Positions 2-36,878 of a stretch of DNA of 64,000 nt are shown in pieces. Below the pieces are notes generated by a model that ran no database searches, had not been told where the DNA came from, and saw nothing but the letters and a program-made list of their open reading frames with translations. Both the position numbers and the translations under genes were made by a program. The stretch is from Nostoc sp. DedSLP01. GTDB taxonomy: Bacteria > Cyanobacteriota > Cyanobacteriia > Cyanobacteriales > Nostocaceae. Within the stretch, counting starts at the first letter, position 1. The number at the start of each line of letters is the position of its first letter. Where the stretch lies: assembly GCA_034530875.2 (NCBI GenBank), contig JAVRCJ020000002.1, positions 192,001 through 256,000 on the forward strand, written 5' to 3'.

Positions 2-1390
2 ATCTTCAGCAACGGCGGCTTCGGCGGCGGCGGCGGCTACGGCACCGCCAACGGCGGCTTCGGCGGCTTTGGCGGCGGCGGCGGCGGCGGCTACTTCGGC
101 AACGGCGGCTTTGGCGGCTTCGGCGGCGGCGGCGGCTTCGCCATCTACGGCGGCGGCGGCGACGGCGGCTACGGCAGCGGCGGCGGCGGCGGCAGCGGCG
201 GCGGCGGCTTCGGCGGCAGCTTCGGCGGCTTTGGCGGCGGCTTCGGCGGCGGCGGTGCTGGATTAGGGGGTGGCATCTTCGTCCGCAGTGGCTCTTTAAC
301 CCTCAACAACACCAGCTTTACCAACAACACAGCCACAGGTGGGACGGGTGCTAACTCAGGTCAAGGCTTGGGTGGGGCAATCTTCATTATGCAGTCTACC
401 AACAATACCAACGGCAATAACCAGGGAATGCCGACTACCCTTGGCAGTGTCAGTTCTGCTGGTACCCAGCCTACCTTTAGCGGCAACAGTGCGGCGAATG
501 ATGCGGCAACACCGACAAATAACGATGATGTTTACGGCACAATTAACGTCACTGCAACCAACCAAGCCCCCGTTGCTGTTGATGACATTGTTTCCACATT
601 CTTTGGTACTAGCGTCAACATCCCAGTTACTACCCTACTAGCCAATGATAGCGATGCCGATGGCAACCCTCTGAGCATCACTGCTGTCAGCAGTGCTACC
701 AACGGTACTGCCGTGCTGAATAATAACGGCACCCCCAACAACAGTGCAGATGATTACGTTACCTTTACTCCAAATCTTCTATTCGTTGGTAATGCCAGCT
801 TTAACTACACCCTCAGCGATGGTAGCCTCACTGATACTGGTACGGTGACTGTGGCTGTCGGTCTTAACAGTAATGGCACTAATTTTGCTGATAGCTTGAT
901 TGGTACCCTTGGTAACGACATCATCAACGGCGGCAATGGCAACGATACCATCTACGGCGGCGCGGGTAACGATAGCCTCAACGGTGATAATGGCAACGAC
1001 ATCTTGTATGGCGATGGACTGATGGATGGCGGCGCGGGTAACGATACCCTCAACGGTGGTAATGGCAATGATACCCTCTATGGTGGCGGCGGTAGCGATC
1101 GCCTCTCTGGTGGTAATGGCAACGATTTACTCTATGGTGGTGCCAGCAGCGATATCCTCACAGGTGGCAGTGGTAACGATATCTTTGCTTTTGCTGGTGG
1201 GGAAGGTACTGACACCATTACTGATTTCATTAAGGGTAGCGATCTGATTGGATTGTATGGTGGTTTAAGCTTTGGGCAATTAAGTTTCTCTGGTAACAAT
1301 ATCCTGGTGACTTCCACTAATGAAATTTTGGCGACGCTGACTGGCATTAATACTACGACGCTGACTGCTGCTAATTTCGTCACGCTTTAA
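2..1390 (+). CDS. Secreted glycine-rich / cadherin-like / RTX calcium-binding repeat protein, paralog 1 (5' end outside the window)
   Basis: The frame of ORF 368..1390 reads open from base 2 ([14 protein letters not shown]...[15 protein letters not shown]). It then has an [19 protein letters not shown] cadherin-like domain, GGxGNDxL nonapeptides and a C-terminal [17 protein letters not shown] tail, collinear with 3278..5215. Confidence 0.9.
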
Positions 1391-1399
1391 TCATCCTTA

Positions 1400-1476
1400 T
1401 TTGATGCAAGCACCTTTGATGCATTGGCTTGCACCTTTGATGCATTGGCTTGCACCTTTAATGCATGAGCGTTGCA
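1400..1476. repeat. 21-bp tandem repeat array (unit TGCACCTTTGATGCATTGGCT), about 3 units
   Basis: Read directly; same unit family as 2619..2771 and 5528..5618. Confidence 0.9.
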
Positions 1477-1510
1477 AAAATTAGCCTTGCTCAGTCTTCA
1501 GAGAGTGGAG

Positions 1511-1541
1511 GCGATGTCTACGACAAGGCTTACGCCTACGC
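1511..1541 (+). mobile_element. Very small HIP1-targeting dispersed repeat (SDR5-like) splitting a GCGATCGC site
   Basis: GCGAT|GTCTACGACAAGGCTTACGCCTA|CGC, a 23-nt insert; related inserts at 39533 and 62691. Confidence 0.75.
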
Positions 1542-1577
1542 TACTCTCACGTTTCACATAAGTATCAATTATATAGG

Positions 1578-1609
1578 ACAAAGATCCTAGTCAAAACTTG
1601 GATCTTTGT
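1578..1609. terminator. Stem-loop between RTX paralog 1 and the sulfotransferase
   Basis: ACAAAGATCC...GGATCTTTGT inverted repeat. Confidence 0.45.
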
Positions 1610-1745
1610 ACGATGCGGTCGTTGAGGCGATCGCTATATAATCTCACCAACGCAAAATTTTAACAACTGTCTAGCCTGTGCGGGTAAAACACACAGGTGC
1701 AAAAGCTTTTATATCAAGGCAATAAATCAAAGCCAATCAATCATC

Positions 1746-2588
1746 ATGACTGCCAAAATCCACTTTATCTCCGGCTTACCTCGTTCTGGTTCCACCTTAC
1801 TCGGAGCCTTACTGCGGCAAAACCCCCGGTTTCATGCCAGCATGACTAGCCCTGTTGGTAGTCTGGTGAACCGAATGCTCGAAGCGATGAGCGAAGACAA
1901 CGAATATTCTGTCTTTATCACCCCTGAGCAAAAACGAGCATTAACCTTAACTATATTTTCCACATTCTACCAGCCGCAAGCAGATAAAGAAGTCATCTTT
2001 GACACTAACCGCTTGTGGTGTAGCAAATTATCCTTAATTCACGAGCTATTTCCTGGCTCCAAGGTGATTTGCTGCGTGCGGAATGTCGCTTGGATTATGG
2101 ATAGCATCGAACGGCTGATTAGAAAAAACGCTTTTGATGTGTCGCGGATGTTTAATAATGCTGGTGAACGCTCCACAGTTTACACCCGCACCGAAGCCTT
2201 GAGTCAAGGGGGACGGTTAGTGGGGTTTGCTTATAACGCCCTCAAAGAAGCATTTTATAGCGAACACAGCGCCTCTTTGCTTTTGGTGGACTATGACTTA
2301 TTGACCCAAGCACCTGATAAAACCCTATCGCTGATTTATCAATTTTTACAAGAGGAACCCTTTAAGCATGATTTTGCCAATGTAGAATACGAAGCTGAGG
2401 AATTTGATAATCGCCTGAATACTAAGGGACTACATCAGGTGCGTCGCAAAGTCGAGTTTCAGCCGCGACTGACAATTTTACCACCGGATTTATTTACTCA
2501 GTATGATGGGTTGTCTTTTTGGAAGAATCCTAGCAATAGTCTAGCAAATGTGATTGTCGCCCAGCCAGTAGAAGCAGTGAGTAAATGA
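1746..2588 (+). CDS. PAPS-dependent sulfotransferase, RaxST-like (putative protein/peptide tyrosine sulfotransferase)
   Basis: 5'-PSB motif HFISGLPRSGSTLL and 3'-PB motif CCVRNVAWIMDS. The blocks LLRQNP, FDTNRxWC and LPPDLF..FW match my recollection of Xanthomonas RaxST. Confidence 0.85.
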   Translation: MTAKIHFISGLPRSGSTLLGALLRQNPRFHASMTSPVGSLVNRMLEAMSEDNEYSVFITPEQKRALTLTIFSTFYQPQADKEVIFDTNRLWCSKLSLIHELFPGSKVICCVRNVAWIMDSIERLIRKNAFDVSRMFNNAGERSTVYTRTEALSQGGRLVGFAYNALKEAFYSEHSASLLLVDYDLLTQAPDKTLSLIYQFLQEEPFKHDFANVEYEAEEFDNRLNTKGLHQVRRKVEFQPRLTILPPDLFTQYDGLSFWKNPSNSLANVIVAQPVEAVSK

Positions 2589-2618
2589 AGCTTTGAATTT
2601 TCCCCTTCTCTACCAGGC

Positions 2619-2771
2619 TGCAACTTAGATGCATCGGCTTGCAACTTAGATGCATCGACTTGCACCTTTAATGCATTGACCTGCACCTTTGATGTATCAA
2701 ATTGCAACTTTAGTGCATCGGCTTGCAACTTAGTTGCATCAACCCGCACCTTAGTTGCATCTACCTGCAAC
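2619..2771. repeat. 21-bp tandem repeat array, 7 units plus a partial unit
   Basis: Units such as TGCAACTTAGATGCATCGGCT and TGCACCTTTAATGCATTGACC start at 2619, 2640, 2661, 2682, 2703, 2724 and 2745. Confidence 0.92.
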
Positions 2772-2777
2772 AAGCAA

Positions 2778-2834
2778 GTTTGTAGTAAGAACTTTAGTCG
2801 TTATTTTCTAAGCACTAAAGTGCTTACTACAAAC
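2778..2834. repeat. GTAG-type REP-like palindrome
   Basis: GTTTGTAGTAAGAACTTTAGT ... ACTAAAGTGCTTACTACAAAC inverted repeat. Confidence 0.75.
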
Positions 2835-2874
2835 CCTCAAAACATCTGAATTTGTAGGGTGCGTTATGGAGATA

Positions 2875-3061
2875 CAGCACCAATGAAATCCTGGCAACGC
2901 TGACGGGTATTAATACCACTACCCTCACATCTGCTGATTTCTTAACGGTCTAGGATTATAGCTTTTTTAGTTGATTAGTGATGCGATCGCTTTTTCTTTT
3001 GACCTCAAAGGCGATCGCATTTTCGCCCATCAAGTCTATTTAATCAAACGCGCTGAAAACA
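2875..3061 (+). pseudogene. 3' remnant (last codons, stop and downstream DNA) of a further RTX paralog
   Basis: Near-identical direct copy of 5137..5324 ([28 protein letters not shown] at 2951-2953, plus the trailer). Confidence 0.88.
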
Positions 3062-3090
3062 ACAGGAATTACTCTATGCCTAATTGCGAG

Positions 3091-3217
3091 CGCGCCAGAC
3101 GATTTTACCACCAGATTTATTTACCCAGTCTAATCAGTTGTCTTTTTGACCAAATCCTAGCAATGGTTTGGCGAATTTGATCGCTCCCCAGCCCATAGAG
3201 ACAACGGTTAAATCTAG
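3091..3217 (+). pseudogene. Degenerate 3' remnant of a second sulfotransferase copy
   Basis: Aligns with 2464..2588 (ATTTTACCACC.GATTTATTTAC.CAGT...TTGTCTTTTTG...AATCCTAGCAAT); the Trp codon TGG has become TGA. Confidence 0.8.
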
Positions 3218-3277
3218 TTTCCTTTTTTAAGGGACAAAAGTTTCACTGACTCGAACTAAACCAAGGAAAAAAATCAA

Positions 3278-5215
3278 ATGGCAACTTTTAATGTAACTTC
3301 TACTACCGATGACGGAACTGGCTTAACCACAGGCACCCTCAGTTATGCAATTCTCCAAGCCAACCAACAGGCAGGGGATGACACGATTAGCATCGATACC
3401 GATGTCCGCATTACAGGGGTGATGAAAACCCTCGTCAACAGCAATATCTCCATCGTCGGCAACGGCAACAGCATCAGTGGTGATGCCAACAACAACGGCA
3501 TCAACGACAACGGCGACGTGCGCCCCCTATTCATCCTATCGGGAAGCGTCGATATTTCTGACCTGACCATCACCAACGGACGAGCTAAAGGCGGAGATAG
3601 TGAACAAGGTGGCGGTGGTGCTGGTATGGGAGGCGGCTTGTTCATCTATGATGGCAATGTGTCTTTGACCGATGTCGCTTTCACTAATAACGCAGCACAA
3701 GGCGGTAATAGCGGTATCGGCTTCGGCAACAACGGTGGTGGTGGGATGTTCGGCAATTCTGGCGGCTACGGCGGCGGCGGACTGTTTGGTTCGAGCAACG
3801 GCAACAACGGCGGCTATGGTGGTAACGGTAACTACGGCGGCAGCAGCAACGGCGGCTTCGGCGGTGGCGGCTTCGGCAGCAGCGGTATCGGCGGCAGCGG
3901 CGGCTTCGGCGGCGGTGGTGGCAGGGGTGTTGTCGGCGACGCCGGCAGCGGCGGCTTCGGCGGCGGTGGTGGCAGTAGCGTTGCCGGCGATGGTGGCAGT
4001 GGCGGCTACGGCGGCGGCGGCGGCTACTTCGGCGGCAGCGGCGGCTTCGGCGGTGGCGACGGCACTGGCTTTCTCGGTGGCGGCGGTGCTGGACTAGGGG
4101 GTGGCATTTTCGTCCGTACTGGTTCTTTAACCCTCAACAACACCAGCTTTACCAACAACACGGCTACAGGTGGTTCGTCTTTAAACGATGGCCAAGGCTT
4201 AGGTGGGGCAATCTTCATCATGCAGTCCACCACCAATACCAACGGCAACAACCAGGGAATGCCGACTGTCCTACCTACCGTCAATTCTGTAGGTAATCCT
4301 ACCTTTAGTGGCAACAGTGCAGCAAATGATGCAGGAACAGCCACCAATAACGATAATGTCTACGGCACGATTAACATCACTGCCAGCAACCAATCCCCCG
4401 TCGCTAACCCCGACAGTGCGACCACTGCCAAAAATACTGCCGTCAGCATCTCGGTAAGTACCCTGTTAGCTAACGATACCGATCCCGACAGCAACCCCCT
4501 CAGCATCACTGGTGTCAGCGGTGTGACTAACGGTACTGCCGTCTTTAACAATAACGGCACAGCCAGCAACACGGCAGATGATTTCGTTCTCTTTACTCCA
4601 ACTACTGGATTCAGTGGTAATGCCAGCTTTGACTACACCCTCAGCGATGGTAGCCTCACTGATACTGCTACAGTTACCGTGGCTGTCGGTAACAACATTC
4701 TAGGCGGTAATGGTGCTGATAGCCTGAGTGGCACAGCAGGCAATGACTCCATTGCCGGAGGCAATAGCACTGACACTCTCAACGGCTTGGGGGGTGATGA
4801 CACCCTTGTCGGCGGTAATCAAGGGGATATCCTCAATGGAGGCGATGGCAATGACCTCCTGCTAGGGGAAGAAAGCGATAACAGTGGCGGTGGCAAAGAC
4901 ATTCTCAATGGCGGTGCTGGTAATGACATTCTCAATGGCGGTAACGGCGTAGATAACCTTACAGGTGGTACTGGCAACGACATCTTAACTGGTGGCAATG
5001 GTTCTGATACTTTCATCTTCGCCGCCCTAGACGGCACCGATACCATCACCGATTTTAGTGGAGCAGATGTAATTGGTTTGTCTGGGGGTCTGAGTTTCGG
5101 CGCTCTGTCCTTCTCTGGCAGCAACATCATTGTTACCAGCACCAATGAAATCCTGGCAACGCTGACGGGTATTAATACCACTACCCTCACATCTGCTGAT
5201 TTCATCACGGTCTAG
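3278..5215 (+). CDS. Secreted glycine-rich / cadherin-like / RTX calcium-binding repeat protein, paralog 2 (probable type I secretion substrate)
   Basis: N-terminal [19 protein letters not shown] cap, [12 protein letters not shown] and [12 protein letters not shown] motifs bracketing a poly-Gly region, cadherin-like domain, GGxGND repeats, and no N-terminal signal peptide. Confidence 0.92.
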
Positions 5216-5325
5216 GATTATAGCCTTTTTTCGGTGATTAGTGATGCGATCGCTTTTTCTTTTGATCTTAAACGCGATCGCATTTTCGCCCATAAAGCCT
5301 ATTTAATCAAACGCGCTGAAAACAT

Positions 5326-5482
5326 TAGTTTGGGTCAAGGAGACAAAATCGGTTTGTCTGGCTTGAGTTTTAGTCAGTTGTCTTTCTCTGGTAATGAGAT
5401 TCGGTTAGGTAATCAAACTTTAGCAATACTCACTGGCTTTGATACGACGACGCTGACACAAAACAACTTTACTTCTGTTTAA
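5326..5482 (+). pseudogene. C-terminal fragment of another, more divergent RTX protein
   Basis: Translates SLGQGDKIGLSGLSFSQLSFSGNEIRLGNQTLAILTGFDTTTLTQNNFTSV*, homologous to the tails of both paralogs; no credible start of its own. Confidence 0.75.
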
Positions 5483-5527
5483 GTCTTTTGGGTGGGCAAA
5501 CGTTTGCCCACTCAACAAATTGGCTAA

Positions 5528-5618
5528 ATGCATTGACTTGCACCTTTGTTGCATTGACTTGCACCTTTGTTGCATTGGCTTGCACCTTTGTTGCATTGGC
5601 TTGCACCTTAATTGCATT
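5528..5618. repeat. 21-bp tandem repeat array, about 4 units (TGCACCTTTGTTGCATTGRCT)
   Basis: Read directly; units start at 5539, 5560, 5581 and 5602. Confidence 0.92.
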
Positions 5619-5624
5619 AAAGGA

Positions 5625-6266
5625 TTATTGTTGAAATTGGCTCAATAACCAAGCACCAACTTGACTTTGATACATTTGACGAGTTCGCCGTAATGCTTCG
5701 TTTAATAAAGAAATAGCTAATCCTGGCAACACCTGAGATTCTGTAATTCGGCGGCTACCTTGGTTTTCAATGGCAAAAGCCATAATTTCCACGTTTTGGA
5801 CATTTGAAATCCAGTATTCTTTGACTCCTAAATCTTCGTATAGTAACCGTTTGTTACCGAGGTCGTCAGCAAGGGAAGTATTGGCAACTTCAATTACTAA
5901 ATCTGATGGTGGATAGATGTCTAAGTTAACAATAGAAGTACCGTAGGGAATAATATTAGCATTCTCGCTAATGTAGTAAGACACATCAGGTTGAGCTTCA
6001 TTCAAGCCTGTTTTTCGATATGTACAATTATCTTTACCATTGAGAGCAATGCCTTTGATGGTGGCAAACAAGTTAACAGCAAACAGAATAATTGTATGGT
6101 CGCTGGCGTGGTCATTTCCTACTGCGTAGATTTCAATCCTCATGTGTCCATTGTGGTAGTAGCCCTTGGCTTTTTCGTAGGCAGGATTTTCTATGAATCC
6201 AATATATTCATCCCAAGTGGCTTTTATCCAAATATCAGTTACTAGTGGGATCTGTAATTCGCTCAT
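5625..6266 (-). CDS. Uma2 family (DUF820) PD-(D/E)xK endonuclease-like protein
   Basis: QPDVSYY, SDLVIEVANTSLADDL, KRLLYEDLGVKEYW; the likely start is MSELQ at 6266. Confidence 0.88.
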   Translation of the reverse strand: MSELQIPLVTDIWIKATWDEYIGFIENPAYEKAKGYYHNGHMRIEIYAVGNDHASDHTIILFAVNLFATIKGIALNGKDNCTYRKTGLNEAQPDVSYYISENANIIPYGTSIVNLDIYPPSDLVIEVANTSLADDLGNKRLLYEDLGVKEYWISNVQNVEIMAFAIENQGSRRITESQVLPGLAISLLNEALRRTRQMYQSQVGAWLLSQFQQ

Positions 6267-6499
6267 AATATTATTGCCAAAGGATAACTCGAACAACGAT
6301 CGCACAAGTTGTATCACCATTAAGCTGATAATAAAGCTTTCGTCGCCTTCTTGCTGACTCTTTTCGTAAGATATCCCAAAGCCTCTAAAGTGATTTTTTG
6401 TAAAATTATATACTGCACTTTTCAATTTTCTGGGTAATCAAAATTTAGAGGCGATCGCTACTTAAAATTTGAGAATGCGATTAAATTTTAAATAAAACT

Positions 6500-7084
6500 A
6501 TGAAACAACAAGGCATAATTCTCTGGCTAACAGGCTTAAGCGGTGCTGGAAAAACAACCATCGCCCACGGTGTCGCCCAAGAACTACTTCTGAGAAATTA
6601 CGCACTAGAAGTACTAGATGGTGATGTGGTTCGCACCCATCTTTCGCAAGGGTTGGGTTTTAGCAAACAAGACCGAGATACAAATGTGCGTCGTATTGGC
6701 TTTGTTGCTGAATTACTCAGTCGCAATGGCATAATTGCGATCGTTGCTGCAATCAGCCCTTACCGTGAAATTCGAGACGAACTCAAAAAGACTTCTACCA
6801 ATTTTGTAGAAGTTTATGTAAAAGCTCCACTTACAGTTTGTGAATTACGTGATGAGAAAGGACTTTACGCTAAAGCCAAGGCAGGAGAAATCAAACATTT
6901 TACTGGAATCTCTGACCCCTATGAAGAACCATTAAATCCAGAGATTATCTGCCAAACCGATAAATTTACTATTGAGCAATGTGTTAACCGAGTAATTAAC
7001 TATTTAGAACACAAAAATTTTATCGTTGCTGATAAAAAATCTCATGCTAATTTAATTACAATCTCTCATAAAGATATGATTTAA
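6500..7084 (+). CDS. cysC: Adenylyl-sulfate (APS) kinase
   Basis: WLTGLSGAGKTT P-loop, LDGDVVR, LGFSKQDRDTNVRRIG, RDEKGLY, FTGISDPYEEP. Confidence 0.96.
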   Translation: MKQQGIILWLTGLSGAGKTTIAHGVAQELLLRNYALEVLDGDVVRTHLSQGLGFSKQDRDTNVRRIGFVAELLSRNGIIAIVAAISPYREIRDELKKTSTNFVEVYVKAPLTVCELRDEKGLYAKAKAGEIKHFTGISDPYEEPLNPEIICQTDKFTIEQCVNRVINYLEHKNFIVADKKSHANLITISHKDMI

Positions 7085-10065: not shown

Positions 10066-13000
10066 CTAAAAGCGATTGCACAGATGTCGATCTTCTTGTT
10101 CTACCTCATGGCTATTTTTAAGATAGTCCTTTGTCCAATTACAAGCGCGAACCATCAGTTCGTCGAGAAGCCGTTCTGTATCTAAACCGTTGAAATCCCA
10201 CAGCATTACATTATTGTCTCCACTAGCAGAAGCTAGGGTATAACCGTTAGGGCTAAAGACCACATTACTAACTGTAGCCTGATGCCCAATGAGGGTTTGT
10301 AGTTCGTTTCCCTCTAAATCCCAGATTTTGATGGTCTCGTCTTCACTTGCAGAGACTAAAGTTTTACTATCGCGGCTAAAAACTATACTATTCACTTTAG
10401 CCTTATGCCCTTTCAAGATGCGCGGTTGCAATTCCCAATTCATGAAATTCCAGAGTTCGATGGTTTCATCTTCACTGCTAGCAGCCAGCATTTTGCCGTC
10501 GGGGCTAAAGACAATGCTGGTAATGCCATCTTTAGAGTTATCATTGGAGCGATCGGGCATTTGCAATTGGATGCTTCGGGGTTTGTTGCCGTTTAAATTC
10601 CAAACTTTAACACTACCGTCTTCACATCCAGAAGCAATGGTTTGATTATCGGGACTAAAAACTATACTTGTTACCCCAGCCTTATGCTTGAGGGTTTGCA
10701 GCAGTTTGCCATTTAAGTCCCAAAGTTTCACAGTTTTGTCTTCACTTGCAGATGCTAGGGTTTTGCCATCAGCGCTAAAGACTACACTTGCTATTTCAGC
10801 CCCTTCTTGTTGAAATATTTTCGGTTTGTTGGTTATTAAATTCCAAAGTTGAACAGTACCGTCTTGATTAGAGAATGCCAGATTTTTACCATCGGGGCTA
10901 AAGGCTATACTTGTAATCACAGCCCCATCTTTTGAAAGGATTTGCGATCGCGGTTCCTTGCTTGTTAAAGTTTTTACATCCCACAGTTGAACAGTACCGT
11001 CTTCGCTACCAGAGGCAATGCTTTGGCCCTTGGGATTAAACACCACAGTGACTACCGCAGCGTGATGCGGGAGACTTGATAGGGGCTTACCTGTGAAATC
11101 CCACAGTTGAACTGTTTTGTCATCACTAGCAGAGGCTAAAGTTTTACCATCAGGACTGAAGACAACTTCGTTGACAGAATCCTGATGCTTTGAAAGGGTG
11201 TGGAGTTCCTTTAAATGCCAGAATTTAACGGTTTTGTCATCACTACCAGATGCCAGAGTTTTACCATCAGGGCTAAAGACTACACTTGTCACCCCTGCTT
11301 CATGCCCTCTGAAAGTTTGCAGACGCTTGCCTTTGAAACTCCATAGAATAACGGTATTATCTTGACTAGCAGATGCCAGAGTTTTGCCGTTGGGATTGAA
11401 GGCAACACTTGTCACCCCTGCTTCATGCCCTTTGAGAATCTGTGGTTTATAGGCGTCCTTGAGATTCCACAGGATAACAGTCTTGTCTTCGCTAGCAGAT
11501 GCTAGAGTTTGACCGTTGGGACTGAAAGCAACGCTTGTAACTACTGCCTTATGTTCTCTAAAGGTATGCAGGGGGTGACCATCTAAATCCCAGAGGATAA
11601 CAGTATTGTCAACGCTTCCAGATGCCACAGTCTGACAATCGGGACTCAAAGCTACACTTGTAACTGCATACTTATGTCCTGTAAAAGTTTTTTGTAGCTT
11701 GTTGCCTATACTCCAAAGTTTAACAGTCTTATCTTTACTTCCAGAGACTAAGAGATTACATGTTTGTGGTGGCAAAGCAAAGGCTACACTTGTAAACACT
11801 GGCTTGTTTTCTGCAATTAGAACATCTGCCTGATGTCCGCGAAAGGTTTGCAAAAAATTGGCTTTTAAATTCCAAAATCTAATAGTGCTGTCTTCGCTAC
11901 TAGATGCCAGGGTATTACCATCGGGGCTAAAAGCCACACCTGTAACTGTATAGTTGTGTTGTGTGAAAGTTTTTTGCAGCTTGCCATCTATACTCCAAAG
12001 TTTAACAGTCTTGTCTTTGCTAGTAGATGCCAGTGTATTACCGTCAGGGCTAAAAGCTACACTTGTCACTCCTGCTTCATGTCCTGCAAAAGTTTGCAAA
12101 AGCTTGCCCTGTAAATTCCAGAGGATAACAGTATTATCTTTACTAGCAGAGGCAAGAGTGCTGCCATCGGGACTAAAGGCTACAGTTGTGACATCAGCCT
12201 CATGTCCTATAAAGCTTTTCAGGCGATCGCCCTGTAAATTCCATATTGTAATAGCATTATCTTTAGTAACAGAGGCTAGAGTTTTACTATCGGGGCTGAA
12301 AACCACAGTTGTAACCTCTGCATCATGCTTGAGGGGGAGTTTTGTCAGTTCCTTGCCCTTTTTTAAATCCCAGAGTTTAACGGTTTTGTTTTCACTACCT
12401 GATGCCAGAATTTTATTATCGGGGCTAAAAGCCACAGTTGTAACCTCTCCACCATGCTTGAGGGTGTGTAGTAATTTGCCCTTTAAATCCCAGAGTTTAA
12501 CTGTTTTGTCTTTACTAACCGATGCCAAAGTTTTACCATCGGGGCTGAAAACCACAGTTGTCACCTCTGCATCATGCTTGAAGGTGTGTAGTAATTTACC
12601 GTTTAAATCCCAGAGTTTAACAGTTTTGTCTTGACTCCCTGAGGCAATAGTTTTACCATCGGAGCTAAAAACCACACTTGTAACCTCTGCACCATGTTGG
12701 AGAAGGAATTTTTTCAGTTCCTTGCCGTTTAAATCCCAGAGTTTAACAGTTTTGTCTTCACTAACCGATGCCAAAGTTTTACCATCGGAGCTGAAAACTG
12801 CACTTGTCACCGCTGCATCATGCTTGAGGGGGGATTTTGTCAGTTGATTGCCGTTTAAATCCCAAACTTTAACGGTTTTGTCTTCACTAACCGATGCCAA
12901 AGTTTTACCATCGGGGCTGAAAACTACACTTGTCACCCCTGCACTATGGTTGAGGGGGGATTTTGTCAGTTCTTTACCCTTTAAATCCCAGAGTTTGATG

Positions 13001-16000
13001 GTTGTGTCGTTACTAGCTGTGGCAATAGTTTTACCATCTGGACTAAAAACCACACTTGTGACCGCAGAGGTATGTGCAGTTAAGCGATTGCGTGCTTGTA
13101 CTATATCAATAGCTTGCTGCAATGCTGCGATCGCTTTTGACTGGGCATCAATTTGACCTTTGCCTTTGAACCACAATAATCTCCCAATTATCGAGTTTTT
13201 GAGAATCATTCTCGCCTTAATTCCTTCTACAAGGGATTGCAAATCTTTGTGAGATTTAGAGAGTAACAAAGAATTTTGGCTGAGAGAATTGGCTTTATTT
13301 AATTCGGCTTCATAGGTTTTGATTGAGGCTATTAACCCCAAACTAGTAGTAACAATAACAACAACTGCTCCACTCAAAATTGTTCTATTTGTGCGGATAT
13401 CGCGACGACGACGACTTTCTTGTTCTTGTTGTTGGCGATCGCGCAATTCAACACATGCTTGCACGTAATTAGCTTCTAAAAAATTAAAAAAATTCGATTT
13501 TTTTAATAGTTCTTTGGCTTCCTCTAAACGTCCGCCTCGATGTAATAGATAGCTTTCGTCTTTTTGAAACTTTTCCCATTCCAAAGCTGCTTGGCGGATA
13601 GTTTCCCGCAACTGAAGCAGGGTACGGTCTTCGTCTAACCAAGCCAGCAATTTCGGCCAGTAACGAATTAAGGCTTCGTGGGCAACTTCCACTTCTTCCT
13701 GCTGTGTAGCTGAATCTACACTGGTAACTATTAAGCGGGCGCCATCACCAGCTAATCGCTTGAGCAACTGTTTGATGGGATTGCGATCGCTACCAGCAGG
13801 GACTAATTCTTCTAACCCAACTCGTCGGCGCGTGTCGCGGCGTTTCTCTCCCGGTTCTTCAGAGTCATCTAAACGGGTGAGGCGCACAAAAATATTCTTG
13901 ATTTGTTCTTGTTCTTCTGGCGTACAGCTATCGTAAAAAGCATCGGCGGTTTGAGCGATCGCCATATTCACGCCACCAATCGCTTCATACTCTACAGACC
14001 GCAACCATCTGCCATGTCGCCGCTTCCACAATTCCAACAGTGCATGTTGTAGTAATGGCATTGCCCCTGGTTCATCTTGGACATCATCCAAAATCCGATT
14101 GCTCAAACCTGGTTCAAAGCGCAATCCCACTTGAGCCGCTTGCATTTCCATTGCTTTTCGCAGTTCTGCGGTATCCATCGGGCCGATCAATTCTTGCCGA
14201 CATTGCATTAATTCTTTGAGTTTCGGGTAGGAAGCACACTCACCCCAAAAGTCTGCCCGCATGGTAATCGCTACTGTTTGCTGTTGCACGACGAACAGGA
14301 ATTTATCAATAAATTCCAGCCTCATGTTTTCATCGGTACAGAGGGTGAAAAGCTCCTCAAATTGGTCGATGACTAGGATTGAAGATTGATTTTGCACCCC
14401 TGACAAAGTAGCTGCTAGTTGCTCAATGGGATTACTACTTGGTGTCATGTAGGCCATGACTAAATCGGGCTGTTTTTCCAACAAAGCCGGAATCAGCCCC
14501 GCTACTACCATTGATGATTTACCGCTACCGGAAGCGCCAAATACAGCTAAGAAGTTATGGGTTGCTAACTGCTGTTGCAATTGTTTGATTAACTTTTCCC
14601 TACCAAAGAAGAATTTACGGTCTTTGATGCGGAAGGGATACAAGCCGAGAAAGGGACACAGAGCATCATAGACAGGTGGCTGCTCTGCTAAAGCTAAAGC
14701 ATTGAAAGTCAGGTCAAGGACTTCTTGACATAAATTGTTGACCTCTTGTAAAGCTTGCGATCGCTCTTGCTGAGTTTCTTTGCTTAAGGCTGTAGTATTT
14801 GTATTGAGAACGTTAGCTAACTTCTGGGCTGGTTCTTGCAGCTTGGATTGCAGTATAGGCGATCGCTCTTGCAAAAATACTTGTAAGCGCTCCAATCCAT
14901 ATTTAATTTCGCTGTTGGTTAAGTTGCGGTCGAGTTGGTCGCTAAATAACGGCCGTCCGCCCAAGCGACTAAACAAGGCTGGGACTGTAATATCACCCCG
15001 CTTTGCTAAAGCTGCTGTCGCTTCATGCAAAGCAGAATCCACCTCTCCCGATGCTCTGAGTTGTTTATAAAAGCTCTCTATTAAGGTTTGCGCTGTTTTG
15101 ATAGTTACTTTATCGGTCATTGCTACCACCGCAGGCATCCCCAAATCCCGGACTAATCTTTGCCCTAAGCCTCCTAAGGAACCTTCAGCTTCCGGGCTGG
15201 CGCTTTCACAAGTACAAAGAAAGGTAAAGTGCGGTAAACCTTTGGCTCCCCGTAACGGCCGCAATCGCTCTAGTAAGTGCGTTGCTGGGATGGCGTCTAC
15301 TGTATTATCAGCTTTTGACCAGTAGACAATGGTTTCACCGCTATCCGTTACTCTACCGTGACTGACAAAATGTAGTATTGTATATTGTTTGTTGCGATCG
15401 CTTAATTGGCTACACAGTTGGTCGATGGTAGGCAAACCAATAGCTCCATCAAGTGTTGCCAGGACATCACAAGGTATTTCCCCCAATGCAGACTTGACGC
15501 TATTAACGCTGGCTGCAACATCGAATTCAGCTAATTTATACTTTAGGGAATCGCTAGGACTAGCAACTAACACCAGCGCCCGCAAATCCCGCCGCCCAAT
15601 GGGGGGAAAGCTACGGTCAGTAATTGCCGGAATGTAGAAAGAAAATGGTACTCGCTGATTTAGTGCTAATAACTCCCAGTCCCCATCAACAGGGGCGCAT
15701 AGCTTTTCCCAACGTAAGGTTCTTAATTCTGGATCTGATGCTTCAATAAAAAGCAACATTCTCAGTGCTTCCTCAGTTTCACGCAAAGCACAGATAAAAG
15801 CATCGCGTACATCATCGAGAAATAGCTTTTTTCCTAGTAATTTACCGTAGTCTTTCGGCTGTCCGAGAAGGCTGGTTAGCTGTTGAAAATTTTCAGGAGT
15901 GAGTTCGAGATTACCTTCTGAGCGTAACGGCAAAAGTTCGCCAAATCTGGTATGTTCTACAACAATTGGCCAGTTATTTCCTGATTTGCGCTGGATGGTA

Positions 16001-16017
16001 ATCTCAAAGGTGTTCAT
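10066..16017 (-). CDS. CHAT caspase-like protease + STAND (nSTAND1-type) ATPase + hydrophobic helix + 23 WD40 repeats
   Basis: CHAT dyad ILHFVSHG and FLCTCES; CPFLGL..FFGRE, Walker A GASGSGKSS, Walker B LVIDQFEELF, GAMPLL, EVAHEAL; 23 GH..WD repeats counted by eye. Confidence 0.92.
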   Translation of the reverse strand: MNTFEITIQRKSGNNWPIVVEHTRFGELLPLRSEGNLELTPENFQQLTSLLGQPKDYGKLLGKKLFLDDVRDAFICALRETEEALRMLLFIEASDPELRTLRWEKLCAPVDGDWELLALNQRVPFSFYIPAITDRSFPPIGRRDLRALVLVASPSDSLKYKLAEFDVAASVNSVKSALGEIPCDVLATLDGAIGLPTIDQLCSQLSDRNKQYTILHFVSHGRVTDSGETIVYWSKADNTVDAIPATHLLERLRPLRGAKGLPHFTFLCTCESASPEAEGSLGGLGQRLVRDLGMPAVVAMTDKVTIKTAQTLIESFYKQLRASGEVDSALHEATAALAKRGDITVPALFSRLGGRPLFSDQLDRNLTNSEIKYGLERLQVFLQERSPILQSKLQEPAQKLANVLNTNTTALSKETQQERSQALQEVNNLCQEVLDLTFNALALAEQPPVYDALCPFLGLYPFRIKDRKFFFGREKLIKQLQQQLATHNFLAVFGASGSGKSSMVVAGLIPALLEKQPDLVMAYMTPSSNPIEQLAATLSGVQNQSSILVIDQFEELFTLCTDENMRLEFIDKFLFVVQQQTVAITMRADFWGECASYPKLKELMQCRQELIGPMDTAELRKAMEMQAAQVGLRFEPGLSNRILDDVQDEPGAMPLLQHALLELWKRRHGRWLRSVEYEAIGGVNMAIAQTADAFYDSCTPEEQEQIKNIFVRLTRLDDSEEPGEKRRDTRRRVGLEELVPAGSDRNPIKQLLKRLAGDGARLIVTSVDSATQQEEVEVAHEALIRYWPKLLAWLDEDRTLLQLRETIRQAALEWEKFQKDESYLLHRGGRLEEAKELLKKSNFFNFLEANYVQACVELRDRQQQEQESRRRRDIRTNRTILSGAVVVIVTTSLGLIASIKTYEAELNKANSLSQNSLLLSKSHKDLQSLVEGIKARMILKNSIIGRLLWFKGKGQIDAQSKAIAALQQAIDIVQARNRLTAHTSAVTSVVFSPDGKTIATASNDTTIKLWDLKGKELTKSPLNHSAGVTSVVFSPDGKTLASVSEDKTVKVWDLNGNQLTKSPLKHDAAVTSAVFSSDGKTLASVSEDKTVKLWDLNGKELKKFLLQHGAEVTSVVFSSDGKTIASGSQDKTVKLWDLNGKLLHTFKHDAEVTTVVFSPDGKTLASVSKDKTVKLWDLKGKLLHTLKHGGEVTTVAFSPDNKILASGSENKTVKLWDLKKGKELTKLPLKHDAEVTTVVFSPDSKTLASVTKDNAITIWNLQGDRLKSFIGHEADVTTVAFSPDGSTLASASKDNTVILWNLQGKLLQTFAGHEAGVTSVAFSPDGNTLASTSKDKTVKLWSIDGKLQKTFTQHNYTVTGVAFSPDGNTLASSSEDSTIRFWNLKANFLQTFRGHQADVLIAENKPVFTSVAFALPPQTCNLLVSGSKDKTVKLWSIGNKLQKTFTGHKYAVTSVALSPDCQTVASGSVDNTVILWDLDGHPLHTFREHKAVVTSVAFSPNGQTLASASEDKTVILWNLKDAYKPQILKGHEAGVTSVAFNPNGKTLASASQDNTVILWSFKGKRLQTFRGHEAGVTSVVFSPDGKTLASGSDDKTVKFWHLKELHTLSKHQDSVNEVVFSPDGKTLASASDDKTVQLWDFTGKPLSSLPHHAAVVTVVFNPKGQSIASGSEDGTVQLWDVKTLTSKEPRSQILSKDGAVITSIAFSPDGKNLAFSNQDGTVQLWNLITNKPKIFQQEGAEIASVVFSADGKTLASASEDKTVKLWDLNGKLLQTLKHKAGVTSIVFSPDNQTIASGCEDGSVKVWNLNGNKPRSIQLQMPDRSNDNSKDGITSIVFSPDGKMLAASSEDETIELWNFMNWELQPRILKGHKAKVNSIVFSRDSKTLVSASEDETIKIWDLEGNELQTLIGHQATVSNVVFSPNGYTLASASGDNNVMLWDFNGLDTERLLDELMVRACNWTKDYLKNSHEVEQEDRHLCNRF

Positions 16018-34991: not shown

Positions 34992-36878
34992 CTAATTTAA
35001 ATTTTCTTCGATAAAATTTTCCAAGCGTTTAAGTTGAAAATTACTAGCAAGCTGGACAACTTTTTGAGCAAAAAATCTTAATGTTTCGTCATAAATAGAA
35101 AGTTGTTCGGCTAGTTCTAAAACATTTTGAATGTCGCCATCTTTGACGAAATCAAGTAACTCTTTTAACACATCATTAGCAGGATAAATTATTTCATTAT
35201 CTTCCTCTAAAGCATTTGTTTTATTTTTTGAGTTTACATCTAGCTTCTCGTCAAAAATCCATTGCAGTTGCAAAAATTGTCGGAGCATTTCCAGCAGTAC
35301 TTCAGCTTCTATAGGCTTTGGTAGAAATGCATCTGCACCGACATCAATGCTCTTGTGCTGGTCGATTGCAAACACGCTGGCAGACGAAGCAATGATAGCA
35401 ATCTTTTGAAATTGGTCTGACTGACGCAAACGATTAATTAACTCAAATCCATCTAATATTGGCATTACTAAGTCTGTGATAACCAAGTCTGGTTTATGGA
35501 TTAGAGCCTGTTCCCATGCTTCCTGACCGTGACAAGCTTCTACGACAGTAAACCCAACTGGCTCTAGTAAATTTACAATTACTGCTCGGTTTTCCCATTT
35601 ATCATCTGCAATTAAAATGGTGCGTCTTTGTCCCAGATAGCCAAGAATTGTTCCTTGCTCAAGTACTCTCGAAACCTTTGCCCAGTCTTTAGATTCTACG
35701 AATTGTACCTCAAACCAGAAACTACTACCTTTGCCTAAAGTACTTTTTACCTGAATTTGGCCGCCCATTAACAAAACAATTTTTTGGCTAATTGCTAATC
35801 CTAAACCTGTGCCTTCAGATTGTCGTTTCTGATTGCCTACTTGCTCAAAAGGCTGGAAGATTTTCTCGGCTTGTTCGGGTTTTATACCTGTACCGGTATC
35901 TATTACCTCAAAGCGAATTTTGTAGTTAGTTTTTCCATTAGTATTTAATTCTCGATTGACGATCTGAACTTTAAAGGTGACACTGCCTTCTTGGGTAAAT
36001 TTAATTGCATTACTAAGTAAATTAATCAGTACTTGTCGTAGGCGTTTTTCATCACCGTGAATACCTGTTGGTAAATCGGGATCGATTTGGACATCAAAGG
36101 CAATGACCTTTTGTTCTGCACGGATGCGGCAAATTTCAGTCACGCTATCAATAAAGGCAGGCAAGTAAAAATCAACAGGATACAATTCGAGTCTGCGAGC
36201 TTCGATTTTGGAAAGATCGAGAACATCATTAATCAATGTTAAAAGATGAGAACCACATTGATAAATGACGCCCAGTCCTTTGCGTCCTTTTTCAGTCAGA
36301 GATTCTGTGCGTTGCAGGATTTGTGTATAGCCCAGGATGCCGTTGAGGGGTGTACGTAATTCATGACTCATATTCGCCAAAAATTCACTCTTGGCCTGGC
36401 TGGAATTTTGAGCGACTTCTTCAGCTTTGCGTAATTCTTTTTCAATGCGCTTGCGCTGTAAAATTTCAGTAGAAAGCACTCTATTGATAGCTTCTAACTG
36501 TGCTGGACTGGGTAGCGTCAGGGCTTGAGGCATTAGAGAAACTAAAGCAAATGCCGTGTATATGGAAATAATCGCAGTTAGAGCTTTTACACAACCTGCA
36601 ACCCAATAATCCGGATGCCAAAGCGTCCAAATATCCATTAAGTGTCCAGTTCCGCAGGCAATGATAAAAGTACTAAATAACACAAAGACTCCATTGAAAG
36701 GAACGTCTTGGCGCTTGGAAATAAAGTAAATCAGTAGAAAGGGAATGGAATAATAGGCAAGAGCGATTGTGGCATCAGAAATAATGTGGAGCCAAACTAA
36801 TCCAGTTTTCCACAGATAACAATGTCCGTGGGGAATAAAACCATCAGAATGGAAAGCGTTGGTGAGAAATGTCGGCAT
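34992..36878 (-). CDS. ETR1-type ethylene-binding domain hybrid histidine kinase with receiver
   Basis: SDATIALAYYSIP (D..Y spacing of ETR1 D25/Y32), FIIACGTGH (I62/C65/H69 spacing), FLANMSHELRTPLNG, GTGLGLAI, receiver TDLVMP. Confidence 0.88.
   Translation of the reverse strand: MPTFLTNAFHSDGFIPHGHCYLWKTGLVWLHIISDATIALAYYSIPFLLIYFISKRQDVPFNGVFVLFSTFIIACGTGHLMDIWTLWHPDYWVAGCVKALTAIISIYTAFALVSLMPQALTLPSPAQLEAINRVLSTEILQRKRIEKELRKAEEVAQNSSQAKSEFLANMSHELRTPLNGILGYTQILQRTESLTEKGRKGLGVIYQCGSHLLTLINDVLDLSKIEARRLELYPVDFYLPAFIDSVTEICRIRAEQKVIAFDVQIDPDLPTGIHGDEKRLRQVLINLLSNAIKFTQEGSVTFKVQIVNRELNTNGKTNYKIRFEVIDTGTGIKPEQAEKIFQPFEQVGNQKRQSEGTGLGLAISQKIVLLMGGQIQVKSTLGKGSSFWFEVQFVESKDWAKVSRVLEQGTILGYLGQRRTILIADDKWENRAVIVNLLEPVGFTVVEACHGQEAWEQALIHKPDLVITDLVMPILDGFELINRLRQSDQFQKIAIIASSASVFAIDQHKSIDVGADAFLPKPIEAEVLLEMLRQFLQLQWIFDEKLDVNSKNKTNALEEDNEIIYPANDVLKELLDFVKDGDIQNVLELAEQLSIYDETLRFFAQKVVQLASNFQLKRLENFIEENLN

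Follow-up and report, generated by a model that had tools for sequence, protein, structure and literature searches.

A RaxST-family sulfotransferase gene paired with a glycine-rich beta-helix protein gene in Nostoc: a candidate two-gene unit for protein tyrosine sulfation

Modifying enzymes encoded beside a large secreted protein, which they glycosylate or acylate before export, are known from HMW1C, Aah/TibC, GtfA/B and HlyC; we know of none that sulfates large secreted proteins. What is known of tyrosine sulfation in bacterial proteins comes from one enzyme, RaxST of Xanthomonas, which sulfates its tyrosine in the cytoplasm before secretion (10.1101/442517, PMC9372746); 3'-phosphoadenosine 5'-phosphosulfate (PAPS) is produced by RaxP and RaxQ (PMC4216712). 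Homologues of raxST with ~40% identity were reported from Proteobacteria and Cyanobacteria in diverse contexts, their substrates being left open (PMC6637879), and one sentence of PMC9372746 mentions, as unpublished, adjacency to genes for exported proteins. A stretch of 64,000 nucleotides from Nostoc sp. DedSLP01 was analysed here (the window, G000:C2:192001-256000; G000 is its own genome and C2 the contig). It carries a RaxST-family sulfotransferase between two genes for glycine-rich RTX proteins. With modest confidence, and from sequence data, we propose that this enzyme sulfates tyrosines of the neighbouring gene's product in the cytoplasm before export.

The locus is like raxX-raxSTAB in enzyme family and length, in PAPS motifs with equivalents of Arg-11 and Ser-118, in a cytoplasmic enzyme encoded beside the gene of an exported product, and in a tie to PAPS supply. 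It is unlike it in its partner, a beta-helix/Gly/immunoglobulin (Ig)/RTX protein of 645-652 aa where raxX encodes a 60-aa peptide with a double-glycine leader, in having no adjacent peptidase ABC exporter, and in an enzyme without His-50 and Arg-129; it is a different kind of system. The animal tyrosylprotein sulfotransferases TPST1 and TPST2 are the closest solved structures by sequence profile and sulfate secreted proteins, but they are Golgi membrane enzymes and prefer Asp-Tyr in acidic tracts. The exopolysaccharide sulfotransferases of pSYSM, whose cluster we take to be xss/synechan, are also cyanobacterial, PAPS-type and for extracellular products, but sit among glycosyltransferases. Neither of the two pSYSM enzymes has meaningful similarity to the window enzyme (best E 0.15 and 0.009).

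The nearest named proteins to the window enzyme are Nostoc sulfotransferases (94-97% identity). A RaxST orthologue (L224) of the same length is identical at 124 of 261 positions (48%, E 7e-87). It was taken from one locus (L224, L262) found among 301 Xanthomonadaceae-level genomes, whose cluster holds gcvP, a RaxX-like open reading frame (ORF), raxST, and HlyD- and C39/ABC-type genes; its enzyme was equated by eye with the RaxST sequence printed in Fig. S6 of PMC6637879. The 5'-phosphosulfate-binding (5'-PSB) and 3'-phosphate-binding (3'-PB) motifs are intact, Arg-13 and Ser-120 of the window enzyme standing for RaxST Arg-11 and Ser-118. In 132 family sequences, 73 columns reach 90% conservation or more; all 73 are kept in the window enzyme and 10 are lost in the RaxST orthologue. 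The resemblance of motif blocks to RaxST, noted in a preliminary description of this DNA, is borne out.

A profile of the family (120 rows) retrieved TPST1/2 first (E 1e-15 to 1e-10), ahead by 7 orders of magnitude of CurM/OLS-type polyketide synthase (PKS) and cytosolic (SULT) sulfotransferases (1e-8 to 1e-6, and 1e-3 or weaker, respectively). By single sequence the TPST similarity is weak (E 0.002). No heparan or Nod-factor sulfotransferase was among the 46 PDB matches of the profile. Since TPSTs rank first and the pSYSM enzymes show no similarity, a grouping with glycan or small-molecule sulfotransferases is not supported; judged by its sequence, the window enzyme is a RaxST-family member and TPST-like. 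In a quick tree (141 rows, midpoint root, TPSTs left out), window enzyme and RaxST fell inside one 128-row group (support 90), in different subclades. The cyanobacterial enzymes formed one clade (100) within a larger group (99) with those of Pseudomonas, Massilia and Ralstonia. The window enzyme is a typical member, and RaxST lies on a long branch (1.41) in the other half of the tree, its exact place being unsure. A published raxST primer gave 2 chance matches and no sulfotransferase in metagenome contigs.

A cassette of 365 residues opens both Gly-rich proteins. In the upstream DNA sulfotransferase copy 1 precedes protein 1, as copy 2 precedes protein 2 in the window, which makes the locus a tandem array of sulfotransferase and Gly-rich RTX gene pairs (Table 1). 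Copies 1 and 2 are 93% identical (57 synonymous and 20 non-synonymous codon differences), and of a third copy only a 3' remnant is left, near 3078-3212. The cassette occurs twice in the genome, among 47 RTX-repeat ORFs and 13 Gly-rich ORFs, and the genome's only two PF13469/PF00685 matches each stand before one of these two cassette genes. Enzyme and cassette are paired more than chance would give. RTX repeats were rejected as the linking feature, the cassette being in only 2 of the 47 RTX ORFs.

The same pairing was seen in other cyanobacteria. At order level (151 genomes), 17 genomes had the enzyme and 27 the N-half of the cassette, all 17 being within the 27; in a phylum sample the enzyme was found in 29 of 401 genomes. 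Nineteen twenty-kilobase loci, hand-chosen from the hits with full-length ones favoured, all had a cassette gene at most 2.5 kb downstream of the enzyme (19/19). At genus level (121 genomes), 31 had an enzyme match, 25 of them near full length, and by hand comparison a cassette lay within ~3 kb on the same contig in 22 of the 25. Two of the remaining three were at a contig edge, and one enzyme stood before an FG-GAP/beta-helix/RTX protein. Nine of the 151 genomes hold a sulfotransferase of a second clade (22-29% identity with the window enzyme), which adjoins a cassette gene in five of these (G004, G020, G073, G079, G067). In G109 it is at the opposite end of the cassette contig, in G134 it precedes a different 1,700-aa protein with a peptidase domain, and G041 and G070 have no cassette match. 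Five of the 10 cassette-only genomes hold this second clade. In two loci (L252, L254) a second-clade enzyme is followed by a GNAT-like gene and not by a cassette, with an RTX gene upstream in one.

The pairing is not specific to cyanobacteria and was seen in several phyla. In a cross-phylum sample of 600 stretches, 277 were confirmed and the best 80, scored against a first row other than the window enzyme, were kept; many are near kin. Neighbours were classed by hand, and 66 pieces were chosen for domain scanning. A Gly-rich ORF lay within 1.3 kb of the enzyme in 40 of the 80 loci (L112 left out, its ORF being probably a shadow frame; L087, L143 and L147 added), 20 had a secretion-type neighbour without a Gly tract (ESPR/PATR, DUF4347, RTX, two-partner secretion (TPS), YadA, beta-helix), 3 were ambiguous, and 17 had none. 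The Gly-rich neighbours were PE/PGRS-type proteins in Actinomycetota, ESPR autotransporters in Dyella-like genomes, DUF4347 giants in Pseudomonas-like ones, PEP-CTERM proteins in Alphaproteobacteria and the cassette in cyanobacteria. The background of Gly-rich ORFs is ~0.4% in the Nostoc genome and higher in mycobacteria (3-48 PGRS matches each). Of 201 Pseudomonas-type genomes, 57 had the enzyme and 51 a cassette-like beta-helix, beside the enzyme in 51/51; the domain was found in 0 of the 144 enzyme-negative genomes. In the other 6 of the 57 the next gene was Gly-rich (1,027-2,273 aa), so that a Gly-rich giant adjoins the enzyme in 57/57. Around the Pseudomonas-type pair there are often further genes, for outer-membrane efflux, HlyD-like, collar-domain, GNAT and Asp/Asn hydroxylase proteins and for a second sulfotransferase, in one larger cluster. 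As the cyanobacterial pair stands without these, the large protein is the likely partner. At Xanthomonadaceae level there were 18 loci: in 8 the neighbour is an autotransporter or DUF4347 gene, and 1 is RaxST. The partners use different export routes (RTX, autotransporter, PGRS, PEP-CTERM) and have the one enzyme in common.

The known part of this is that raxST homologues occur in cyanobacteria, together with the general hint of adjacency; the preliminary description, which knew of no such system described in cyanobacteria, is corrected on the first point. Excerpts of PMC6637879 and PMC9372746 name neither the partner nor a substrate and mention neither the Gly-rich cassette nor the second clade, and cassette, second clade and counts were not found in the literature searched. 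No paper was found that joins a sulfotransferase with DUF4347, MapA adhesin or polyglycine II, in a search that may miss PE_PGRS papers and had most subscription journals outside it; only one paper held both 'tail collar' and 'sulfotransferase'.

The cassette was modelled from a 35-row alignment (predicted local distance difference test, pLDDT, 87.5; predicted template modelling score, pTM, 0.89), which was used instead of a single-sequence model (pLDDT 38.6). The model is a right-handed beta-helix broken by ~125 residues without helix or strand. The best fold match was a beta-helix alginate lyase (Z 16.0, root mean square deviation 2.5, 172 aligned), with which many beta-helices nearly tie. 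A Foldseek search found nothing at E 0.001 or better, and the ESM Atlas gave, as a lead only, unnamed or PMP/beta-helix clusters at 0.85-0.90. Within the insert, residues 191-280 have pLDDT 70-94 and residues 172-190 fall below 50. Pooled over 17 cassettes, inserts are 54% Gly, 6.5% Phe, 5.7% Tyr and 2.5% Asp. Polyglycine-II bundles form the PGRS domains and the Gly-rich domain of ALK/LTK, and by analogy the insert may be such a bundle; no such structure was among the 50 fold-search matches listed for the whole cassette, where the beta-helix dominates the results. Outside the cassette, relatives differ in the make-up of the protein (DUF4347 head, Ig domains, RTX tail). The conserved partner is the beta-helix with its Gly/Tyr insert, neither RTX nor cysC. 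In the window, both flanking genes have Big_9/cadherin-like domains by Pfam. RTX repeats reached a Pfam score for protein 1 and below-cut-off NCBIfam RTX-region matches for both; each protein has 6 C-terminal nonapeptide repeats by pattern and no Cys. Several of the genome's HlyD-type adaptors reach the TIGR01843 cut-off with neighbouring pieces summed. By these features both partners look like RTX type I secretion substrates.

Substrates of the RTX type do not fold until they are exported. In the proposed scheme, the pair would be a two-gene post-translational modification unit, tandemly duplicated in this genome. ATP sulfurylase encoded elsewhere and the extra cysC, with its added capacity of adenosine 5'-phosphosulfate (APS) kinase, would provide PAPS. 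We infer an active enzyme that would O-sulfate tyrosines of its neighbour, most likely in the Gly-rich insert, on a chain still unfolded in the cytoplasm. The modified protein would then leave by an unlinked type I system and fold outside into a surface or matrix protein bearing sulfate and negative charge, with a presumed adhesin-like role. Sulfation is placed before export because PAPS and RaxST-type enzymes are cytoplasmic (PMC9372746), RTX chains are unfolded, and the type I adaptors lie elsewhere in the genome. A complex prediction of the enzyme with cassette residues 100-300 (score 0.00, mark 0.32) was not used as evidence.

Several observations weigh against this scheme. In the cross-phylum set, 17 of 80 loci have no secreted neighbour, 3 are ambiguous and 20 have a secreted one without a Gly-rich tract. 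The other 9 of the 18 Xanthomonadaceae-level loci, which form one clade, lie instead in housekeeping-type surroundings, with a MATCAP/QEGLA peptidase, a pyridoxal phosphate (PLP) decarboxylase and malic enzyme in the 1.5 kb of flank covered; a Ralstonia megaplasmid (L033:12001-24807) has the order enzyme, cysC, non-ribosomal peptide synthetase (NRPS); and three Mycolicibacter-type loci have no partner. Cassettes exist in genomes where no family enzyme was found (e.g. G110, G150, G833, G846, G873), so the cassette does not need the enzyme. His-50 and Arg-129, reported as essential in RaxST (PMC6637879), are Asn-52 and Asp-131 in the window enzyme; family-wide they are rare (2/132 and 9/132). 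Of 127 insert tyrosines, 75 have Gly before them, and Asp falls outside the six most frequent residues at that place, whereas known TPST substrates mostly have Asp before Tyr (PMC9372746). Some enzyme-adjacent inserts have only 1-2 Tyr. The median Tyr content of 34 enzyme-adjacent cassettes exceeded that of 14 distant ones (4.0% vs 1.7%, p 0.023; 4 rows of uncertain context left out), but Phe shifts too (p 0.0004), and the comparison is confounded by kinship, since the groups follow the tree, on which the labels cluster; two distant cassettes are Tyr-rich.

As to the residue, tyrosines in acidic or Gly contexts had been pointed to in the preliminary description. The acidic sites SADDYV and SFDYTL did not hold up: they lie in the Ig-like domain and differ between the two paralogues, where the matching places read DDFV and NYTL, and were rejected as acceptors. 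In RaxX, Tyr-41 follows Gly-38/Gly-39, and RaxST accepts an Asp-Tyr peptide in vitro (10.1101/442517). Loss of RaxST's two basic residues, His-50 and Arg-129, would fit non-acidic Tyr sites. In actinobacterial Gly tracts Tyr was 1.4% beside the enzyme and 0.8% in 29 control loci (one control was dropped as the adjacent gene itself).

The partner could also be the right one and the chemistry another, with sulfate placed on Ser/Thr hydroxyls, on an attached glycan, or on tyrosines outside the Gly insert. All linkage evidence fits this equally, as do the 20 secreted neighbours without a Gly-rich tract. Thr reaches 9.9% in enzyme-adjacent actinobacterial Gly tracts against 5.9% in control PGRS tracts, and Thr sulfation is known in methanobactins (PMC11143521). 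We regard this as unlikely: the sole characterised family member is a tyrosyl enzyme, the window enzyme keeps all family-conserved columns, no glycosyltransferase travels with the cyanobacterial pair, and Ser and Thr are not raised in enzyme-adjacent cyanobacterial inserts. We rate no higher a separate acceptor (exopolysaccharide, or a small phenolic compound or peptide) that the beta-helix protein binds or acts on, the genes being linked by shared purpose. The cassette fold does resemble carbohydrate-active beta-helices, and since family members adjoin NRPS, sulfatase and PLP decarboxylase genes, other acceptors are likely somewhere in the family. That fold alone shows no function, however; the pSYSM sulfotransferases are dissimilar, and heparan and Nod-factor enzymes did not appear among the PDB matches. 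Partners across phyla are alike in secretion and often in Gly-richness without a shared catalytic domain, and no biosynthetic gene accompanies the cyanobacterial pair.

It is very improbable that the genes have no functional link and were merely transferred and duplicated together as one mobile block. The distribution is patchy (31 of 121 genus-level genomes), duplication debris and pseudogenes are present, and relatives are not independent, but two enzyme clades ~25% identical take the same position, the gene order flips to cassette-enzyme on a Nostoc plasmid, and adjacency stays while the partner changes from RTX to autotransporter, PGRS and PEP-CTERM proteins. A RaxX-like plant-hormone mimic, either a sulfated small peptide or a fragment of the large protein sensed by a plant or fungal host, is scarcely credible: the database names of close relatives include lichen cyanobionts, but those of relatives include Microcoleus, Okeania and Crocosphaera just as well, and nothing at the locus (ORFs of at least 80 aa) points to the mimicry that the comparison with RaxX had brought up, with no raxA/raxB-type exporter there and the RaxST-specific His-50 and Arg-129 absent.

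The APS kinase gene was treated separately. The window cysC is an extra paralogue, the other copy lying on contig C37 (55% identical), and the ATP sulfurylase is on contig C10, away from the locus. A cysC lies within 10 kb of the enzyme in at least 10 of the 31 enzyme-positive genus-level genomes, and is present in 1 of 20 wider cyanobacterial loci and 7 of 80 cross-phylum loci. As a defining part it was rejected on these counts; of the trio first proposed, the linkage of enzyme and secreted protein is conserved and the cysC part is not. On the Nostoc plasmid mentioned above the enzyme is followed directly by cysC. Its role may be that of an accessory PAPS supply.

Beyond the locus, and tentatively, the RaxST family may be a general writer of sulfotyrosine on Gly-rich (polyglycine-II) segments of large exported proteins (type I, autotransporter, PGRS, PEP-CTERM; at least 3 phyla), with two distant enzyme clades serving the same cyanobacterial cassette and RaxST a derived offshoot recruited to a GG-D-Y hormone-mimic peptide. 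The locus gives a minimal two-gene test in a non-pathogen, with one enzyme, one adjacent candidate substrate and defined tyrosines. If tyrosine sulfation of the partner is true, sulfation would stand beside glycosylation and acylation among the modifications dedicated to surface proteins of bacteria, RaxST would have a likely origin, cyanobacterial mats and crusts would have a protein source of sulfate, and soluble tyrosine sulfotransferases that may accept non-acidic sites would be at hand.

The locus runs, 5' to 3', from an RTX/cadherin gene without a Gly tract and a CAP-domain gene through sulfotransferase copy 1, Gly-rich protein 1, copy 2, the third-copy remnant, Gly-rich protein 2, an RTX-tail remnant and a Uma2 gene on the minus strand to cysC, which starts 1284 bp after the end of the protein 2 gene. 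ORFs, Pfam and NCBIfam confirmed the arrangement first described, with four ORFs all on the plus strand, the sulfotransferase between two Gly-rich/cadherin/RTX genes and cysC ~1.3 kb on. Counted from an ATG 568 bp upstream of the window, protein 1 has 652 aa; its window part holds the end of the Gly/Tyr insert, the C-half of the beta-helix (about 251-544), an Ig/cadherin-like domain and RTX repeats. Scanning of 32 larger neighbouring ORFs (27 in the window, 5 upstream) found no ATP sulfurylase, PKS or NRPS, as first noted, and a single glycosyltransferase ~22 kb past cysC. No raxA/raxB-type peptidase ABC exporter was among the neighbouring ORFs read or scanned; on the opposite strand a MacB/RND-type pair is found ~10 kb upstream of the window. 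Promoter and terminator scans at the locus gave counts not above shuffles (13 vs 10.4; 2 vs 8.1).

Table 1. Features of the sulfotransferase locus (window positions unless a contig position is given).
Feature	Position	Strand	Remark
Sulfotransferase copy 1, intact	G000:C2:190434-191282, upstream of window		149 bp before start of Gly-rich gene 1
Gly-rich RTX protein 1, 3' part	2..1390	+	5'-open ORF; Pfam Big_9/cadherin-like, RTX
RaxST-family PAPS-dependent sulfotransferase, copy 2 (280 aa)	1746..2588	+	PF13469/PF00685
Duplication debris: end of RTX-gene tail and 3' remnant of third sulfotransferase	2875..3220	+	Directly before Gly-rich protein 2
Gly-rich RTX protein 2 (645 aa, no Cys), proposed substrate	3278..5215	+	
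Conserved cassette of protein 2: beta-helix (~170 residues) with Gly-rich insert	3278..4372	+	Predicted structure
Gly/Tyr/Phe insert of protein 2 (GGYGG, GNYGG, GGFGG; 5 Tyr), proposed acceptor region	3698..4078	+	
Big_9/cadherin-like domain, protein 2	4367..4687	+	Pfam
RTX nonapeptide region, protein 2	4700..5113	+	NCBIfam, repeat pattern
Second RTX-gene tail remnant	5342..5482	+	
Uma2-family gene, probably unrelated insert	5625..6425	-	Between RTX gene 2 and cysC
APS kinase (cysC), extra paralogue	6500..7084	+	Above TIGR00455 and PRK00889 cut-offs

Further observations were made on relatives of the enzyme. Actinobacterial enzymes (L077-L080, L104, L105) branch beside those of Dyella/Rhodanobacter and adjoin PGRS-type genes, which suggests transfer with change of partner. 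In L209, L211, L214-L216 and L218-L220, the enzyme has a MATCAP/QEGLA tyrosine-carboxypeptidase-like gene on one side and, in several, a PLP-dependent decarboxylase on the other, and this clade possibly represents a route of free-tyrosine or aromatic-amine sulfation. The conserved enzyme-cysC-NRPS order of Ralstonia, in which 133 records match the enzyme, is a candidate sulfated-peptide pathway; RaxST-based mining gave no new clusters for peptides made on ribosomes and modified after translation (PMC11143521). One Pseudomonas-type locus (L261:724-19118) holds the enzyme, a DUF4347/Gly giant, an outer-membrane efflux protein, an HlyD-like pair and an M50 peptidase fusion, with collar-domain, GNAT, Asp/Asn hydroxylase and second sulfotransferase genes. 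Locus L229 (G846:C1:2493000-2507000) has a cassette gene with a Gly insert of 70 residues and a window-type cysC, no enzyme being found there; decay after enzyme loss is possible. Ten phage records have a RaxST-like sulfotransferase, and that of cyanophage S-SKS1 (L160:1663-6192; 33% identical) has Kelch-like repeat genes, rich in SYGYFGGG, on both sides.

A CAP-domain gene (G000:C2:189248-189814) stands just before copy 1, and L058 has a similar ORF after its cassette gene. Arrays of 21-bp tandem repeats lie downstream of the locus genes, at window positions 1389-1487, 2599-2781 and 5519-5638. Further along the window, positions 10066-16017 encode a protein of 1983 aa that has a long WD40 region and whose N-terminal parts look CHAT- and NTPase-like by eye, and positions 34992-36878 encode a hybrid histidine kinase with an ethylene-receptor-like N-terminal domain.

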